From Dehalococcoidia bacterium (GTDB lineage Bacteria; Chloroflexota; Dehalococcoidia; Lucifugimonadales; QGNO01): a stretch of 64,000 bases of DNA. Positions 13,181-50,358 of the stretch are shown piece after piece (within the stretch, counting starts at the first letter, position 1; each line of letters starts with the position of its first letter). The notes under the pieces were generated by a model that saw only the letters and a list, made by a program, of their open reading frames with translations, was not told the origin of the DNA and made no database searches. The translations under genes and the position numbers were made by a program. The stretch spans positions 2,106,636 to 2,170,635 of the forward strand of contig CBDFLI010000002.1 in the NCBI GenBank assembly GCA_965249115.1. Reading direction: 5' to 3'.

Positions 13181-14698
13181 CTATCCCCTCTGTCGATACT
13201 GCAACGCCTCCGCAAGGTGGACCACGCCTATTTTGTCCGAGCTCGCCAGGTCAGCTATGGTCCGGGCCAGCTTGAGCACGCGATGGAACCCCCTGGCAGA
13301 GAGCCCCAATTGACGCATCGCTGCCTGGAGGAGTCCACGTGTGGACTCGTTCAACGGACAATGGGTCCACACCTCCTGTGGGCCCATGTCAGCGTTGCAG
13401 GTCATGTCATGGTCGGGGAAACGCAGCATCTGGACTTCCCTGGCCTGCTTCACCCTCTGTCGTACGGCCTCGGACGAGTCAGCTGATGGGTCCTCCACCA
13501 GCTTCTCGTACTCCACCCGTGGCACGTCCACGAACATGTCCATACGGTCCAGCAGGGGGCCGCTTACCCGTTTCTGGTACCTGGCCACCATACCTAACGT
13601 GCACGTGCACTCCCGCTGGGTGTCTCCGTAAAAGCCACATGCGCAGGGGTTCATGGCGGCCACCAGCATGAAGTTGGCGGGAAAGGTCACGTTCCACTGG
13701 ACACGACTAATGGTGACCTTTTTGTCTTCCATGGGCTGGCGCAATACCTCCAGGACGTTGTGGCCGAACTCTGGGAACTCGTCCAGGAACAGCACGCCCC
13801 TGTGGGACAGGGTGACTTCGCCGGGATGTGGCCAGCGTCCACCGCCCACCAGCGCGGCGTGGGATATGGTGTAGTGAGGCGATCGAAATGGCCGTTGAAC
13901 AATGAGTGGCGAGTCTTGGGGAATGAGACCGCCAATGCTGTATATCTTGGTGACCTCCAGAGACTCTTCAGGGGTCAGGGGCGGCAGCACAGTGGGGAGT
14001 GCCCGTGCCAGCAGGGTCTTCCCACTTCCCGGCGGTCCGCTCATAAGGAGGTTATGGCCCCCGGCTGCGGCTATCTCCAGGGCTCGCTTGGCGTGTTCTT
14101 GTCCGCGGATGTGACTGAGATCAAGGCCGTCCACGGCCGGGTTGTCAGCCGGTGCGGGGTCGTTGGAAGAGTCGTAGGCTGAAAGTACCCCGTCGCCCCG
14201 CAGGTGATTGACCAACTCCGCCAGGGTCTGGACGGGAATAACCTGGATCCCGCTCACCAGGGCGGCCTCTCTAGCGTCCACGGCTGGGACGAACACCGTC
14301 TGAAACCCCTGCTGTCGTGCCAGGGCCACCATTGGCAGAACGCCGTTAGTGTGTCGCAGGTGGCCGTCCAGGGAAAGTTCCCCCAGGAAAAGGCTTGAAT
14401 CCGGGCTGGAGGGGACCTGTCCGGAGCTTGTTAGGAGGCCAACGGCTATCGGAAGGTCGTAGGTTGGGCCCTCCTTCTTGAGGTCCGCGGGCGCCAGGTT
14501 CACGGTGACGCGACGTAATGGGAACTCGTAGCCCGAGTTTCGGATAGCCGCGCGCACCCGCTCCCGCGCCTCCTGTACCGCCGTATCGGGCAGCCCGACG
14601 ACGTTAAAGGCAGGCAACCCTTGAGAGATGTCTACTTCAACCTCTACAACGGCACCGTCCAGCCCTATTACGGCACAGGTGTTGACCTTGGCGAGCAA
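13181..14698 (-). CDS. comM: ComM/YifB Mg-chelatase-like AAA+ ATPase
   Basis: GLPDTAVQEARERVRAA, NLAPADLKKEG, GPPGSGKT, LFLDEFPEF, AAMNPCACG, GLSARGFHRVLKLARTIADL; probable TTG start at 14698. Confidence 0.95.
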   Translation of the reverse strand: MLAKVNTCAVIGLDGAVVEVEVDISQGLPAFNVVGLPDTAVQEARERVRAAIRNSGYEFPLRRVTVNLAPADLKKEGPTYDLPIAVGLLTSSGQVPSSPDSSLFLGELSLDGHLRHTNGVLPMVALARQQGFQTVFVPAVDAREAALVSGIQVIPVQTLAELVNHLRGDGVLSAYDSSNDPAPADNPAVDGLDLSHIRGQEHAKRALEIAAAGGHNLLMSGPPGSGKTLLARALPTVLPPLTPEESLEVTKIYSIGGLIPQDSPLIVQRPFRSPHYTISHAALVGGGRWPHPGEVTLSHRGVLFLDEFPEFGHNVLEVLRQPMEDKKVTISRVQWNVTFPANFMLVAAMNPCACGFYGDTQRECTCTLGMVARYQKRVSGPLLDRMDMFVDVPRVEYEKLVEDPSADSSEAVRQRVKQAREVQMLRFPDHDMTCNADMGPQEVWTHCPLNESTRGLLQAAMRQLGLSARGFHRVLKLARTIADLASSDKIGVVHLAEALQYRQRG

Positions 14699-14893
14699 AG
14701 AGTCCGCCTTTAGGAGCGATATCTCCAATCTTAGCGGGCGGACGGTAAAGCGTCAAAAGATTACACGCCAGCACCTCCTCCACAGCATCAACACACAGCG
14801 CACTGGCTAGGCAGAATGCTAGTTCGGGTATTTGCATTAGGGGAGACCAGTTGGCTCATAAATGCGAGCCATATGGGTCAGCTGCCAGGCCGA

Positions 14894-44932: not shown

Positions 44933-46525
44933 TTACGTCTGAACGCCGGTTGAGGCCCCTTTTCGCTTTTTGGCCGCTCTTTTGGCCTTGCCGGTCTCTT
45001 CCATGCTACCACGCCCTCTACCGCCTCGGCGACGGCCTTCCCCGCCTCTACCCGGGATTACCAGGTCTTCCGCGAACATGATCTGAGAGTCCCCACTGGG
45101 AACAAGCTGAGGCACCTGCCATACGTCGTCTGTGATGGGTATCCCTTCTTCCTCATCTTCCTCCACAACCTCTTCGTCCTCGGTTTCAGTCGTCGTTTCT
45201 CCCTCTTGCCAGGAGACGTCGGTCACAGACTCTTCGGCTTCAACGGTGGCTAATACAGGCTCCGGCGCCTCTTCGACTTCCGCCGGCGCCGCTTCAGTCT
45301 CGGTGACTTCAACAGCCTCAGCAAGCGGTTCTGCTTCGGCGGCCACAGGAGGTTCCGCCGGCTCAGTTTCAATCTGCGCCTCTGCCGCTACAGGCTCGTC
45401 CACTACCGCTGGTTCAGTGACAGGCTCCTCTTGGATGGTCTCCTTCTCAGTCCGGACCGGCGCGGTCCTCTTCAACCGTTCCATGTCCGCCTCAGCAGAG
45501 CTGAGGATATCTATCTTCCATCCCGTGAGCTTCGCCGCCAGCCGGGCGTTCTGTCCTTCCCTACCAATGGCCAGGGACAGCTGCTTCTCCTGCACCACCA
45601 CTGTGGCGTTGCCTTCATCATCCAGGCCTACGTGGATGGTCTGGGATGGGTTGAGAGCGTTGGAGATGAACACCGCTGGGTCCCGGTGCCACTGCACAAC
45701 GTCTATCTTTTCCCCCTGGAGTTCATTGACGATATTCTGAATACGGATGCCTCTTAGCCCCACGCAAGAGCCGACCGCGTCTACTCCTTCCTGCTTTGCC
45801 CACACGGCCACCTTGCTCCGTGACCCGGCTTCCCGGACGATGGCCTTGATCTCAACCATACCGTTGTAGATCTCCGGCACCTCAATTTCAAACAACCGGC
45901 GCAAGAGGTCCTTGTTTGAGCGCGAGAGGATGATCTCAGGGCCCTTGCCTGACTTGCTTACCTCGGCTATGTAGAACTTCATCTTCTGATTCGGCCGGTA
46001 CCTCTCCGTTGGCACCTGCTCTCGCTCCGGCAACGCGCCCTCGGCACGTCCCAGGTCAACGATGATCTGTCGTGGCTCCATACGCTGGATGGTGCCGGTT
46101 ACAACATCGTCGGCGCGGCCTGCGTACTCCTCGAAGATAAGGTCCCGTTCAGCCTCGCGCAACCGCTGCATGACTACCTGTTTTGCAGTCTGCGCCGCGA
46201 TGCGTCCGGCCAGGTATTGCGTTGACTCTAGCTCCACCGTTTCATCTACGGAGGCGTCTTTCTTGATCTTTTTGGCTGCGGCCAGGGTCATCTGCGTGAG
46301 GGAGTCCTCCACGTCTGCCGCCTTCTTCACCACATCCATCAGCACGAACACCCGCACGTCGCCCGTGCCGGGATTGAGCCGGACAGCTATGTTCTGTCCT
46401 GCTGTTGCGTTATCCTTTTTGTACGCAGACGCCAGCGCCGCCTCTATTGCGGACAGGACCATATCTCTGGGCAGGCCCCTCTCAGCAGCAAGCTGCGTCA
46501 AGGCAATCAGAAAATCGCTTTTCAT
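44933..46525 (-). CDS. nusA: Transcription factor NusA with long acidic and basic C-terminal tail
   Basis: [64 protein letters not shown]. Confidence 0.97.
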
Positions 46526-46571
46526 GGCCCTCACCCCTCCTTGGCCTCGGCAGTGATACCCTTTACTGAAC

Positions 46572-46594
46572 AAAAAAGTGGGACAACCCCACTT
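46572..46594 (-). ncRNA. rimP-leader-like hairpin/attenuator upstream of nusA
   Basis: Minus strand AAAGTGGG-TTGT-CCCACTTT followed by more T, in the 5' UTR of the nusA operon. Confidence 0.7.
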
Positions 46595-46636
46595 TCTAAA
46601 ACCACTCCTAGACCTGATGTCTTGAAATCCGCCCAT

Positions 46637-46814: not shown

Positions 46815-47477
46815 GTGAGTAAACGACTGGCGGTCCTGCTGGATTTCGATGGGACCCTTACCCAAAAAGACCTGGGAGAGCAGCTCCTGGAAGCATTTTC
46901 AGATTCCCAGTGGCGCGGGGAAGCCGCGGAATGGCGCGCGGGCCGCGTCTCCTTCAAGGTGATGAACGAGCGGGAGTTCGCCTACCTCCCGGCGGATAAG
47001 CGCCAGGAGATGGAGAGGTACGCCGCAGAGCACGCAAGGCTGAGGGATGGCGCCCTGGAGCTTGTCGGCTACTGCGAAGAAAAGGATATCCCCGTTGAGA
47101 TAGTCTCGGGTGGCCTGGACTTCTATATCCGGGCTGTCCTGACGAAGTTTGGCCTGGCGCACCTACCAGTTTTGTGCCTAAAGCAGGCCGACTTCACCCA
47201 GGGGAACGGTGTAGTTGTCAGCTACTCGGATGGCGTTGTGGTCTGCGAGACCACCGGGGCATGCAAGTGCTCACGACTGTGGTCTTATCAGGAGCGGGGG
47301 TACCGTGTGCTCTTCGTAGGTGACGGCTCCTCCGACCGATGCATTGCCGCCAAGGCCGACATTCTATACGCCAGAGGGTCCCTGGCCGAGTTCTGCCGCG
47401 ACCAGGGCGTTCCCTTCACCGAATACAAGTCCCTCAATGAAGTGGCTGACGGTCTTCACCGCATGCTGGAGACATAG
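46815..47477 (+). CDS. HAD-superfamily phosphatase (MtnX-like)
   Basis: LLDFDGTLT, IVSGG, CKC, FVGDGSSD. Confidence 0.88.
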   Translation: MSKRLAVLLDFDGTLTQKDLGEQLLEAFSDSQWRGEAAEWRAGRVSFKVMNEREFAYLPADKRQEMERYAAEHARLRDGALELVGYCEEKDIPVEIVSGGLDFYIRAVLTKFGLAHLPVLCLKQADFTQGNGVVVSYSDGVVVCETTGACKCSRLWSYQERGYRVLFVGDGSSDRCIAAKADILYARGSLAEFCRDQGVPFTEYKSLNEVADGLHRMLET

Positions 47478-47517
47478 GTTAGCAGTATCTGTGGGGGCCG
47501 ATGATACCAACCTTGGT

Positions 47518-47546
47518 GTAGCCGCCACTAATCTCTGCCCGTGCGG
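47518..47546 (+). repeat. comM-like att repeat, left copy
   Basis: GTAGCCGCCACTAATCTCTGCCCGTGCGG (VAATNLCPCG); 23/29 identical to 49401..49429. Confidence 0.65.
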
Positions 47547-47628
47547 GATGTAATTGAAACATCGGTTGAGGTTGGCGTAAAGCTACGCCGCAGTACCTGA
47601 ACAGCTTGTGTGCAACGAGCCGAGTAGA

Positions 47629-48297
47629 CTAGGACTCTTGCAATTGAGAGCGCAGTTCCCTGGACGGGTATAGCAACAACGCAACACCTATGACTAACGG
47701 GAGGATAACGAGCGTGGCCGGAAGGGTGATCGACGGAGTGAGGATTAGCCAACCCAAGCTCCACCCTAGGGTCCCCCAGCCGATCCATCGCGGCAGCACT
47801 TTCGTGCGAAGAAACGCCCAACCATAGAACACCATCGACACGTTGGCGAAGGTCACGTAGCGAAGCTGTATCGTGCCGTTTACCCATTCCCGGAGCGGCT
47901 CAAAAAACTCAGGGATGGTTCCTCTACGGGCCCATTCCTCCCCTGCCCAAGCCGTCAATTCGCTGTGAAACGTATCTTCAATAGCCGAGAGAATGAGGAA
48001 AACGATAAAAAGATTGAATGCCAGAAATGGTACGGCCTTGTCTCCGGACTCGTTCAGATAAACAGTCAGCAAGCCAAAACCCAAGAAGAGAAGGAGAATT
48101 TCAGGGCCCCTGAACACAGCGACCGTCCGAAATACAGAGGCTTTCTCTCCTATTTCCTCGACTCCTTCCCAAGCTGCCGGAATGCCCTCTATGTTCCCAT
48201 GGGCTATCACCATTATGAACTCCGCAGCAATGAATAACGTGTTGAAGACCAGCAGGGTGCCGGCTATGCGACCCGTCGTCCAAAAGCCCTTACTCAC
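47629..48297 (-). CDS. Hypothetical multi-TM membrane protein (DUF4386-like)
   Basis: GTG start overlapping the upstream stop region; about 6 hydrophobic helices; LPRWIGW motif. Confidence 0.65.
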   Translation of the reverse strand: MSKGFWTTGRIAGTLLVFNTLFIAAEFIMVIAHGNIEGIPAAWEGVEEIGEKASVFRTVAVFRGPEILLLFLGFGLLTVYLNESGDKAVPFLAFNLFIVFLILSAIEDTFHSELTAWAGEEWARRGTIPEFFEPLREWVNGTIQLRYVTFANVSMVFYGWAFLRTKVLPRWIGWGTLGWSLGWLILTPSITLPATLVILPLVIGVALLLYPSRELRSQLQES

Positions 48298-48940
48298 TCT
48301 TTGGCTCCTGGCCAGTGTCAATTTGGGTGCGCCTCCTAGCCCATCCGACGGCAAAGACGCTCACTCCCGCAGCAAGGAACAAAGACACCGGATACCACAT
48401 CCAGTAGAACAACACGGCAACCATCCAGATTCCACCGATAGCTAGCACCGCTCCGAGCCCTGGTGCTCGTTGGATCAACCCGAACCCGACTACCGAGAGT
48501 GCGAACCCAAGGAAGAGCAGTGAGAACCCAATAACGTACTTGAGCCACGGTACGATCAGCCGTCTGCTGGGGTCATCGTACTCGATGGTGTGCACCGCGA
48601 TGAGGACGATGGAAGCGACGACCAGCATCGCCATTAGGATCATCGTAGCCAACCCCAACGAGGATCGCACGCCGAACATTTGCGTCATTGGCCTCTCTTT
48701 CGTGAAGCTGCTCTGTATTCGAGCCTCAACGAACCGCCAAAGCAGGTCGGCCGGAATGCCGCGGAGACATCGAAGCAAGATGCTTGACTTATCGCCGGTC
48801 GCACCCGGTCCGTGTACCCCCAAAGCGTTAGTCTGGTCCCATAAGTCGGAGGCAATCTCTGCGCGACGGGCGTTCCTCATCTCGAGGGGCAACCCGAGAG
48901 TGTACAGCCACACCCAGCCTCGAACTACGCTAAGCCTCAC
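48290..48940 (-). CDS. PadR-associated membrane protein
   Basis: GTGA overlap with the padR stop; N-terminal WVWLYTLGLP...RRAEIASDLWD helix, followed by 4 TM. Confidence 0.72.
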   Translation of the reverse strand: MRLSVVRGWVWLYTLGLPLEMRNARRAEIASDLWDQTNALGVHGPGATGDKSSILLRCLRGIPADLLWRFVEARIQSSFTKERPMTQMFGVRSSLGLATMILMAMLVVASIVLIAVHTIEYDDPSRRLIVPWLKYVIGFSLLFLGFALSVVGFGLIQRAPGLGAVLAIGGIWMVAVLFYWMWYPVSLFLAAGVSVFAVGWARRRTQIDTGQEPKSE

Positions 48941-49296
48941 GGAGTTGCTCTCTTCCGGGTCAGGCCCGATAGACCCATTAACTCCTCCGCCTTGGCCCGA
49001 GCAAGCGCTCCCTCGCCTGCCGTGGTAACCTGATAGAACCGACGCGTGGGCCGGCCCTGCTCCAATGCGAGCCGCGGGTCCTCCCAAAAACTCTCCAGGA
49101 AACCCGCCCGCTCCAGCCGGTGCAACGCCCGGTAGAGTGTGCCATGTGCGGTCAGTTGCCGAGCACCTGTGAGGTCTTGAATCACTTTCGCGATGAGGAA
49201 GCCATGTGCAGCCTCGGTGCCGCTGGCCCGGAGACCCAGAGCGGCCTCCAGCACGGACAACTCCATGGGTATCAACGTCCCCTTTTTACGTCTCAT
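48937..49296 (-). CDS. PadR family transcriptional regulator
   Basis: HGFLIAK, GTLYRALHRLERAGFLESFWE, GRPTRRFYQVT. Confidence 0.92.
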   Translation of the reverse strand: MRRKKGTLIPMELSVLEAALGLRASGTEAAHGFLIAKVIQDLTGARQLTAHGTLYRALHRLERAGFLESFWEDPRLALEQGRPTRRFYQVTTAGEGALARAKAEELMGLSGLTRKRATP

Positions 49297-49302
49297 TGCG
49301 CA

Positions 49303-49331
49303 ACTATAAGCATATATATGCGTATAGTCAA
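49303..49331 (-). promoter_or_regulatory. Leaderless padR promoter with palindromic operator
   Basis: TTGACT-17 nt-TATAGT-6 nt-ATG; 26-bp palindrome ACTATAAGCATATATATGCGTATAGT (one mismatched pair) spanning the -10 and part of the -35. Confidence 0.8.
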
Positions 49332-49400
49332 GTGGGGCCTCTCTTGGCGGGCAAGACTTCGCCGCAAAGCTACACCGTAGCGCCTACACGAAGTGCGTGC

Positions 49401-49429
49401 GTGGCCGCGATAAATACCTGCCCGTGCGG
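49401..49429 (+). repeat. comM-like att repeat, right copy
   Basis: GTGGCCGCGATAAATACCTGCCCGTGCGG (VAAINTCPCG), continuing CYG. Confidence 0.65.
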
Positions 49430-49518
49430 CTGCTACGGCAAGTCTGATTGCCGTGACTTTCCAACATGTTGCTCAAACTAAGAACCCTTCCCTGCTCTGG
49501 GAAAAGTGTTCCTAAAGC

Positions 49519-50358
49519 TTAGCCCCGCGCCCTCCCGCGGCGCAGTCCCTTCTCCGTCCACCCCTGCGCCACGTCTATGCACCGCATGAACTCCACACCC
49601 GGGTGGGACATCATATACTGGATCATCCTCTCCAGGGCCATGATCCTTGCCAGGCGCCCGCTGGTGTAGGGGTGCATTGTGAGCATGAGAGCGCGCCCGT
49701 ACTTGTAGGCGCCGTCAAACTCCCACTGCCAGGCGTTGAACACCTCCTGAGGGCTGGCCAGGGGTCCCGTGCGGTTCATTATGGGGGCGTACACATAGTA
49801 TGGGACGTCGTCCAGGGACCAGTGGACAGGCAGTTCCAGTATGCGGCCCTTGGTCGCGTCGACGTAGTAGGGGATGTCGTTTCCCATGAGGCTGGAGTCG
49901 TAGATGAAACCCCGTTCCACCAGCAGGTCCAGGGAGTTTTCGCTCAACTCCCAGGAGGGTGACCTGTATCCCAGGGGTCGCTGGCCTGTGATGCCTTCCA
50001 ATATGCTGGAACCCTTGTCCAGGATATCGCCTTCGTCCTCGTCGGGTGTCAGGGAGCTGGGCGGCTCGTGCAGGTAGCCGTGATTGCCCACCTCGTGTCC
50101 CTGTCGCACTATGTAACGCACGTGGTCCGGATAGTGCTCCGCCACGTACCCCGGGACAAAGAAGCTGGACTTGATACGGTACTCGTCCAGAAGCCCCAGG
50201 ATGCGGTGCACACCCACATCAGGGCCAAACTGCCCCTGGGACATCATGCTGGGGTGTTTGAGCATCTCCGGGTTTCGCCTTACCGTACTGGCTATCCAGT
50301 CGAAGTCAAAGGTCAGCATTACAACGCATCGGGTCTTCCCCGGCCATAGTCCGGACAT
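49519..50358 (-). CDS. Polysaccharide deacetylase (CE4, PgdA/PuuE-like)
   Basis: MLTFDFD, FFVPG, NHGYLHE, GYRSPSW, YDSSLM, LTMHP. Confidence 0.9.
   Translation of the reverse strand: MSGLWPGKTRCVVMLTFDFDWIASTVRRNPEMLKHPSMMSQGQFGPDVGVHRILGLLDEYRIKSSFFVPGYVAEHYPDHVRYIVRQGHEVGNHGYLHEPPSSLTPDEDEGDILDKGSSILEGITGQRPLGYRSPSWELSENSLDLLVERGFIYDSSLMGNDIPYYVDATKGRILELPVHWSLDDVPYYVYAPIMNRTGPLASPQEVFNAWQWEFDGAYKYGRALMLTMHPYTSGRLARIMALERMIQYMMSHPGVEFMRCIDVAQGWTEKGLRRGRARG

Follow-up and report, generated by a model that had tools for sequence, protein, structure and literature searches.

A padR cassette between comM-like direct repeats in a Dehalococcoidia genome and its relation to a dispersed family of att-like modules

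Organization of the padR locus

A block of about 2 kb that carries the gene of a PadR-family regulator and two membrane-protein genes lies between comM-like direct repeats in the genome of a Dehalococcoidia bacterium (GTDB lineage Bacteria; Chloroflexota; Dehalococcoidia; Lucifugimonadales; QGNO01). The stretch analyzed, called the window here, comprises 64,000 nucleotides (nt) of NCBI GenBank assembly GCA_965249115.1 (contig CBDFLI010000002.1, positions 2,106,636 to 2,170,635 of the forward strand), and the host genome, G000, is 2.73 Mb in two contigs with a G+C content of 58%. An original prediction, made from the letters of the window, had described the block as a minimal non-autonomous element bounded by att-like pieces of a foreign comM. 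Based on comparisons with close relatives and with other genomes of the order and the class, we consider it probable (about 0.6) that the end pieces are attL/attR-type sites of a comM-targeting element family and that the padR genes form a recombinase-less cassette that is moved in trans.

The gene order around the insert is infB, ylxR and nusA (all on the minus strand), a HAD-IB phosphatase gene (plus strand), the block of about 2 kb, a deacetylase gene (minus strand) and a LiaF-like gene. The cassette encodes a PadR-domain protein and two polytopic membrane proteins, with a palindrome upstream of padR that is probably the PadR operator. No recombinase is encoded in the cassette, in agreement with the non-autonomous character that had been predicted for it. 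The features are as follows (window coordinates; L045, L046, L048, L049, L055 and L056 are loci of close relatives, G039 is another genome with the cassette, and A, X and B denote parts of the end modules described below).

46815 to 47477, plus strand: HAD-IB (MtnX-like) phosphatase gene, the conserved left flank (Pfam PF12710)
47478 to 47500, plus strand: leftover of the ancestral HAD-deacetylase spacer (gttagcagtatctgtgggggccg), aligning with the first 22 nt of the 27-nt spacer in the empty junctions of L049, L048, L055 and L056
47518 to 47546, plus strand: left comM-like repeat A_L (attL-type core), with the 12-nt core at 47535 to 47546; L045 and L046 have orthologous pieces in this position
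47547 to 47622, plus strand: cassette-side arm of the module, made up of X (GATGTAATTGAAA), a linker and B (GCGTAAAGCTACGCCGCAGTACCT and a degenerate palindromic tail), from covariance-model matches
47629 to 48354, minus strand: cargo gene 3, a 241-amino-acid (aa) polytopic membrane protein without a Pfam family; a homologue in the cassette copy of G039 shares 75% nt identity
48290 to 48940, minus strand: cargo gene 2, a polytopic membrane protein of about 215 aa without a Pfam family; start inferred from the G039 homologue
48937 to 49296, minus strand: cargo gene 1, PadR-family regulator (Pfam PF03551, E 4.8e-13)
49303 to 49328, no strand assigned: palindrome ACTATAAGCATATATATGCGTATAGT upstream of padR, an inverted repeat and probable PadR operator, kept in the G039 cassette
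49362 to 49403, plus strand: right inner repeat B_R (CCGCAAAGCTACACCGTAGCGCCT and tail ACACGAAGTGCGTGCGTGG), aligning with the B part of the module consensus (R2 model match 49357 to 49403)
49401 to 49442, plus strand: right comM-like piece A_R (core 49418 to 49429) with the comM-like continuation CTGCTACGGCAAG (CPCGCYGK); the orthologous piece of L045 is 86% identical
49443 to 49518, plus strand: insert tail, the end of a Cys-rich open frame (stop 49479 to 49481) and 37 nt, kept in L045 (identity 0.85, then 0.68) and absent in L049, L048, L055 and L056
49519 to 50358, minus strand: polysaccharide deacetylase gene, the conserved right flank (Pfam PF01522)
13181 to 14728, minus strand: resident intact comM, 515 aa, with motif LVAAMNPCACGFYG at 13625 to 13678, which has 3 mismatches to the 12-nt att core

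Repeats at the cassette ends

The outer direct repeat is 29 nt long (47518 to 47546 and 49401 to 49429) and identical at 23 of its 29 positions. When both strands of the 2.73-Mb genome are searched in full, the 12-nt core of this repeat, CTGCCCGTGCGG, is found at two sites only, the two outer repeats. Just inside lies a 24-nt repeat (47575 to 47598 and 49362 to 49385; 18/24 identical), the two copies of which find each other and about one random match each when the genome is searched at up to 6 mismatches. The order along the cassette is A-B ... B-A, and both this order and the inner repeat are present as originally predicted. The end repeats are real and go beyond chance.

The plus-strand translation of the left end finishes with TNLGVAATNLCPCGM and a stop, and that of the right end with CVAAINTCPCGCYGKSDCRDFPTCCSN and a stop, both as the original prediction had given and placed them; the corresponding translation of the resident comM (13625 to 13678) is ANFMLVAAMNPCACGFYG. 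When a degenerate DNA pattern for AAxNxCPCG was run against 401 genomes of the order it matched 97, nearly all of them once and inside comM, and the reversed control pattern gave two matches. G000 is the sole genome among the 401 with two matches of the pattern outside comM; three further non-comM matches are intergenic. At the protein level the picture is less clear, as the right piece matches the resident ComM weakly (E 0.089), and the case for a putative comM origin of the end pieces is one of DNA-level and comparative evidence, not of a protein match to the resident ComM. Over 42 nt the right piece resembles comM to either side of the core, as a complete attB would. Solo pieces of the right type, with a comM-like continuation as at the right end of the window, are also present in genomes G018 (AARNRCPCGFYGS) and G136 (AARNLCPCGFNGE).

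The right piece (49401 to 49481, plus strand; 9829 to 9905 in L045) also opens a short Cys/His-rich frame, which reads VAAINTCPCGCYGKSDCRDFPTCCSN to its stop in the window and MNNCPCGHHGKSHCHDFPTCCSN to its stop in L045. In four of the seven codon differences between the two, Cys, Tyr, Asp or Arg is exchanged for His. The frame could be a small metal-binding peptide gene or a mere comM-derived relic.

The HAD-deacetylase junction in close relatives

Genus-level relatives were found by protein searches with the flanking genes. Orthologues of the HAD gene at 85-90% nt identity occur in L045, L046, L055 and L056 with matching infB-ylxR-nusA-HAD synteny, and deacetylase orthologues at 96% aa identity are present on the contigs with an empty junction. 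Four states of the HAD-deacetylase junction were apparent: the padR cassette (G000), an alpha/beta-hydrolase gene, a membrane-protein gene, and an empty 27-nt spacer.

L045 (328.7-kb contig, identical synteny): complete module, frameshifted alpha/beta-hydrolase gene (plus strand), and a right piece (KVAAMNNCPCGHHGKSHCHDFPTCCSN and a stop) orthologous to that of the window
L046: complete module, then a plus-strand membrane-protein open reading frame, where the contig stops
L049, L048, L055 and L056: HAD stop codon, 27 nt, deacetylase stop codon, with no comM-like sequence

The original prediction had suggested a search for relatives with an empty junction, and such relatives do exist, while others hold different cargo between the same pieces. 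In a tree of the HAD gene the occupied L046 is sister to the empty L056 (95.5% nt identity in that gene). To the left of the cargo, identity among G000, L045 and L046 is 0.84-0.86 at the end of the HAD gene, 0.78 up to the core and 0.77 in X, and then falls to 0.53-0.65, the background for unrelated cargo in this segment comparison being 0.54-0.62. On the right it stays at background (0.54) until 29 nt before the end of the core, and is then 0.86 in A_R, 0.85 in the tail and 0.90 in the deacetylase gene. Identity breaks at both repeats, which places them at the limits of the exchanged segment; the inner arms change together with the cargo. The left arm (47547 to 47622) aligns with 16 other modules, and its likeness to the arms of the relatives drops to background past X.

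These comparisons do not support one element of the original prediction, namely a pre-existing comM-derived landing pad of about 70 bp that spares ComM, because the closest relatives have at their empty junction just 27 nt of spacer, none of it comM-like. Given that the pad is absent from the empty junctions, it belongs to the accessory insert rather than to the conserved features of the host; a pad serving as a decoy "of a foreign comM" is no more than a possibility. The only type of empty junction found has no repeat at all, and no unoccupied single-copy att site was found in any relative. As the empty junction has no pad, either the first insert brought the pad in, or the empty alleles arose by a precise loss of the whole.

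Two side observations concern genes at this locus. The alpha/beta-hydrolase cargo of L045 (8998 to 9771) is split into three frames, with three stops in a straight translation, and is either a decaying gene or affected by assembly errors. The longest nusA frame of the window (44933 to 46636, minus strand) encodes 567 aa versus the 518-522 aa called in close relatives, the excess being N-terminal, and the true nusA start is probably further downstream.

A dispersed module of about 110 nt

The left repeat and the inner arm together form a module of about 110 nt that is dispersed in about 4-8% of the sampled Dehalococcoidia genomes. A pattern scan of genome contigs with the left arm returned only genome G072 and two chance matches. 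One of the three intergenic matches of the AAxNxCPCG pattern is in G072, and its likeness to the left end of the window extends about 85 nt past the comM-like part and includes the inner repeat. A scan for the core followed by X added one true module (L065), and a scan of metagenome contigs with the tail pattern gave no match. A sequence-only covariance model built from the window left end and G072 (R1) picked up copies in 16 of the 401 genomes searched in the order, with at most three in any one genome. Its weakest matches are genuine comM genes, and hence the 5' part of the R1 model is truly comM-like. A 17-sequence module model (R2), searched at class level, matched in 31 of 401 genomes, with some of the matches being comM itself. 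At the left end of the window R1 covers 47501 to 47605 and R2 covers 47509 to 47615.

The 17 copies align to a consensus consisting of A (GTGGCnGCnATGAATnnCTGCCCGTGCGG), X (AATGTAATTGAAC), a linker of about 20 nt and B (GCGCAAAGCTnnGCCGTAGTAnCTGCACGAnnTGCGTGCAG), whereas the right end of the window consists of the B part, directly followed by the A part and the comM-like CTGCTACGGCAAG. The A part tracks the comM allele types, being AAMN-like in the order of the window and ARN-like in genomes G726 and G288. Most copies lie between co-oriented genes, 15-140 nt past one and 120-320 nt ahead of the next, and the neighboring genes are functionally unrelated. A 3' palindrome, CTGCACG-N4-5-CGTGCAG, is present in about half of the copies, with paired changes in G029 and G049. 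The arm-like inner repeats of the original prediction are accordingly parts of a conserved att-like module; that the left piece belongs to a dispersed family, and is no unique scar, the prediction had missed.

Several other identities were tried for the module and rejected. A structured RNA did not fit, as there was no Rfam match at E<=5 on either strand of 47300 to 49700, whole-module folding on both strands against shuffled sequences gave z scores of -1.4 to +1.5 (mean -0.2), and RNAalifold returned no consensus pairs for the module alignment; the 3' palindrome alone recurs. An integron attC was set aside because the module has no attC hairpin and no IntI, and a group II intron 5' end (the core has GTGCG) because of the 29-nt duplication and the lack of an intron-model match. 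As for a Xer/dif-like site, a search of G000 gave no canonical dif, and the module has a core unlike dif. Finally, a miniature inverted-repeat or other element derived from an insertion sequence (IS) was rejected, the insert ends being without terminal inverted repeats and their boundaries with the 27-nt spacer without a clear duplication.

Arrays, pairs and cargo in other genomes

Co-oriented arrays of single-gene cassettes were seen on contig C103 of G726, not in the genome of the window. In this array a module, a 144-aa zinc-ribbon gene, a module, a 346-aa PD40 beta-propeller gene and a further module follow one another in one orientation. The A part there, GGCACGAATCCCTGTCCGTGC, resembles an ARNPCPC-type comM allele at the level of DNA, the reading frame being shifted by one base. 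On contig C16 of genome G453 two modules 5.45 kb apart enclose peptidase, SCP2 and ferredoxin-like genes with no recombinase between them, and no large serine recombinase was detected in that genome at E<=1e-5. Tandem modules without cargo are present on G136:C6. A search with PF00589 gave no match on G726:C103, on G453:C16 or near the window site, and an adjacent IntI-type integrase is thus absent from all three. Among the cargo encountered to date are PadR operons, methyltransferases, hydrolases, peptidases and an OLD-family nuclease.

The padR cassette itself has a second copy in G039, at 75% nt identity and at an unrelated locus between an ABC-2 permease gene and a SCO1-like gene; this copy is without the A pieces and keeps the degenerate B tail. 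In G000, a stretch of 160 nt (C2:376946-377105, L015) is 74% identical to window positions 47864 to 48023, inside the gene of the 241-aa membrane protein, which suggests a paralogue of this cargo gene.

Insertions into comM at the same motif

A search for ComM in the module-bearing genomes revealed that comM is split at residues of about 357-366 in several of them, at the same VAAMNPCPCG codons. In G670 the two halves are 47.5 kb apart with an element between them, of which attL reads ...ATGAACCCCTGCCCGTGCGG|TTAACTG... and attR reads ...CTGCACGGA|TGTCCCTGCGGCTACTATGGAGAC. The gene of a 570-aa large serine recombinase reads across this attL, and a terminase-like gene is near attR. An element of the same kind splits comM in G019 and encodes a 532-aa serine recombinase, which is 40% identical to that of G670. 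In both genomes the element is a large-serine-recombinase prophage whose serine integrase (Resolvase, Recombinase and Zn-ribbon domains) adjoins attL, which is not so in the window cassette, and the arms of both elements differ from the X-B arm of the module. In G648, a genuine piece of comM (residues 300-363) runs at ...TGTGCGTGCGG|AACGTAATTGAA directly into an X arm of the module family; fragments are present on contigs C8, C85 and C87 of this genome. The first cargo beside that arm (G648:C8:57008-58681; L073 7008-8681) is an OLD-family nuclease gene (AAA_15/AAA_21 and TOPRIM), a candidate anti-phage defence gene.

In G134 the same spot was hit by an IS3-family element (C4:19058-20585; L070 1560-3085) with an orfA of 125 aa and an orfB of 330 aa, which sits in comM at the GCTATGAAC codons and has an apparent 8-9-bp duplication. 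Several unrelated kinds of element thus strike one spot in comM, and the role of this gene as an integration target, part of the original prediction, is borne out by the splits at the motif in G670, G019 and G648 and by the IS in G134. The ComM search detected no comM in G136 and G726 and N-terminal fragments alone in G018 (genomes 85-99% complete); these three may have lost ComM to such insertions.

Recombinases of the host genome

Elsewhere in G000 there are 11 matches to PF00589 (tyrosine recombinases) and 11 to PF07508 (large serine recombinases). Matches to the Recombinase domain are unusually numerous in G000 and its relatives, with 11 in G000, 28 in G019 and 23 in G049. A short tyrosine recombinase of about 213-250 aa, Int_A, is encoded at G000:C2:2045604-2046356, with a fragment at C2:811004-811572, and has copies 70-86% identical in G029, G072, G049 and G013 (nine in G013), genomes that belong to different families within the order; Int_A has the look of an enzyme from a separate element of high mobility. 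As a helper for the modules Int_A was rejected, since it lies 6-13 kb from modules in G029 and G072 but no module is beside its other copies. Similarly, a P4-like integrase 6 kb from the G136:C6 modules was rejected because it was not seen in other genomes.

Discussion

The interpretation of the padR genes as a recombinase-less cassette between attL/attR-type sites builds on the repeats, on the replacement of cargo together with the empty junction, on a class-wide module family with arrays, and on the splitting of comM at the motif. Under this interpretation, 47501 to 49518 would be an accessory insert into a former 27-nt HAD-deacetylase spacer, and its sites would descend from an attB inside comM, the DNA coding for VAAMNPCPCG(F/Y)YG, used by a family of site-specific elements. 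The left, attL-like site would consist of the comM 5' side, the core and the cassette-borne arm (X-linker-B), and the right, attR-like site of arm B, a comM-like 5' side, the core and a comM-like 3' side; both ends behave as comM-derived sites of these types, in keeping with the att-like character originally predicted for them. A recombinase supplied in trans would insert or swap circular cassettes at the core, which would account for the different cargo between the same two sites in close relatives. On the left, the data would put the crossover in the core or up to 13 nt rightward of it; on the right, they would put it at A_R or within it. The recombinase and its type (tyrosine or serine), the position of strand exchange and the present mobility of the window copy are matters that we infer.

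Several observations weigh against this interpretation. There is no recombinase gene in the cassette or within 50 kb of it, and the best relative in G000 of the two comM-targeting serine recombinases (G670 and G019) is only 28% identical. No excision joint or circle was seen in four runs of assembled contigs, which at a depth of 2-7 carries little weight. Most dispersed modules are solo, having no partner within 20 kb (G072) or 1.5 kb (elsewhere). The right repeat is conserved among the relatives as strongly as the flanks, and exchange at the core is for this reason not distinguishable from exchange just beside it. In addition, the same phyletic pattern could result if homologous recombination in the flanking genes added and removed entire alleles.

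The main alternative is that the repeats are fossil scars, left when full-size comM-targeting elements integrated and decayed separately in each lineage down to att relics and a few genes, with alleles spreading by homologous recombination through the flanks and with no mobilization of small cassettes. It would be favored by the full-size large-serine-recombinase elements in comM of G670 and G019, by the lack of a cognate recombinase in G000, by the frameshifted cargo gene of L045, by the solo state of most modules and by the missing comM-like pad in the empty junctions. However, it needs three independent decays, each ending with one to three genes exactly between the same sites, and the single-gene arrays of G726 and the recombinase-less pair of G453 resemble tandem small cassettes and not decayed prophages; the arms of the G670 and G019 elements are, moreover, unlike the X-B arm. 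We regard decay alone as unlikely.

A comM-like site outside comM might also be a landing pad selected by the host, which admits comM-targeting cargo without disrupting ComM. The right piece, with its 42 nt resembling a complete attB, would suit such a role, two or three different cargos have used the site, and the three mismatches in the core of the resident comM (CACG) could protect that gene. Against these points stand the 27-nt junction of the closest relatives, which has no pad, the failure to find an unoccupied pad in any relative, and the debris-like setting of the solo right-type pieces in G018 and G136, which adjoin truncated genes and transposases; selection for a decoy seems improbable to us. 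Still harder to sustain, and in our judgment very improbable, is the idea that the module is a host element (a small RNA, a leader, a terminator or a regulator-binding region) that resembles comM by chance, with the differences in cargo being ordinary indels. The placement of most modules between co-oriented genes and the 3' palindrome with its paired changes are what such an element might show, but the module has neither an Rfam match nor a consensus structure nor a notable folding score, its neighboring genes share no function, its A part follows the comM allele types, and in G648 genuine comM is joined to the same arm.

Returning to cassettes moved in trans, a wider proposal is possible, if somewhat doubtful: Dehalococcoidia may harbour an undescribed trans-recombinase cassette system, integron-like in its logic, in which small circles of one or a few genes, each with a module of about 110 bp whose core is the comM sequence coding for VAAMNPCPCG, would integrate one after another, either at comM or at comM-derived sites elsewhere, and thereby give rise to arrays and to accessory loci that can be exchanged. 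Like integron cassettes and clusters of attC sites lacking integron-integrases (CALINs), these units include one-gene cassettes with a site of about 100 nt, form arrays of uniform orientation, carry varied accessory genes and encode no recombinase. Unlike them, they have no attC-type hairpin, no R''/R' core sites and no IntI beside the arrays, and their site comes from a comM coding motif.

Large-serine-recombinase prophages are known to split host genes, as Listeria A118 does in comK and Bacillus SPbeta in spsM, and the attL and attR of such recombinases usually share 2-12 bp. The comM genes of G670 and G019 are comparable, being split at one precise site with an integrase gene reading across attL; the window cassette differs in having no integrase, 29-nt repeats and arms unrelated to those elements. 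Elements flanked by the att sites of a helper integrative and conjugative element (ICE), namely cis-mobilizable elements (CIMEs) and integrative mobilizable elements of the Streptococcus thermophilus ICESt1/3 family, arise by tandem accretion. With them the cassette shares non-autonomous cargo between attL and attR, a missing recombinase of its own and, as proposed, the need for one in trans and an origin by such accretion; here, in contrast, no helper element was identified, the units are much smaller, and integron-like arrays occur in G726. In Acinetobacter and Legionella, comM is reportedly a recurrent target of mobile elements as well (AbaR/Tn6022-type islands, in a PLoS Biology paper of 2024). 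Those islands are Tn7-like transposons that encode their own transposition functions and produce a 5-bp duplication, at another position of comM and in other phyla; they are alike in their target, and their mechanism differs from that of the cassettes here.

The nearest described system in the class is that of the ssrA-specific genomic islands of Dehalococcoides, which are bounded by direct repeats of the target gene and have a large serine recombinase adjoining attL (McMurdie et al. 2011, PMC3146451). These islands share with our elements the class, a site-specific attachment at a single-copy housekeeping gene and the several repeats left by tandem insertion, and, with the comM elements of G670 and G019, the large serine recombinase beside attL. 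They differ in that the target here is comM, the units are 0.7-5 kb and without an integration module, att pieces lie outside the target gene, and a conserved arm of about 110 nt goes with the core. A family of small cassettes with comM-derived att sites may not have been described before in Dehalococcoidia.

If the cassettes move as proposed, they would represent a second route of small-cassette gene shuffling beside integrons, in slow-growing, streamlined bacteria whose accessory genes matter for bioremediation and the subsurface carbon cycle. The module of about 110 bp offers a search handle for cargo across metagenomes and for the hunt for the recombinase, which might itself serve as a tool for site-specific integration. 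Should the cassettes prove immobile, the locus would still illustrate clearly how a genome comes to be strewn with the att relics of gene-targeting elements. If the proposal is true, cassette traffic would be tied to comM, a gene needed for natural transformation, and the capture of cargo would be linked to a loss of competence unless ectopic sites are used.

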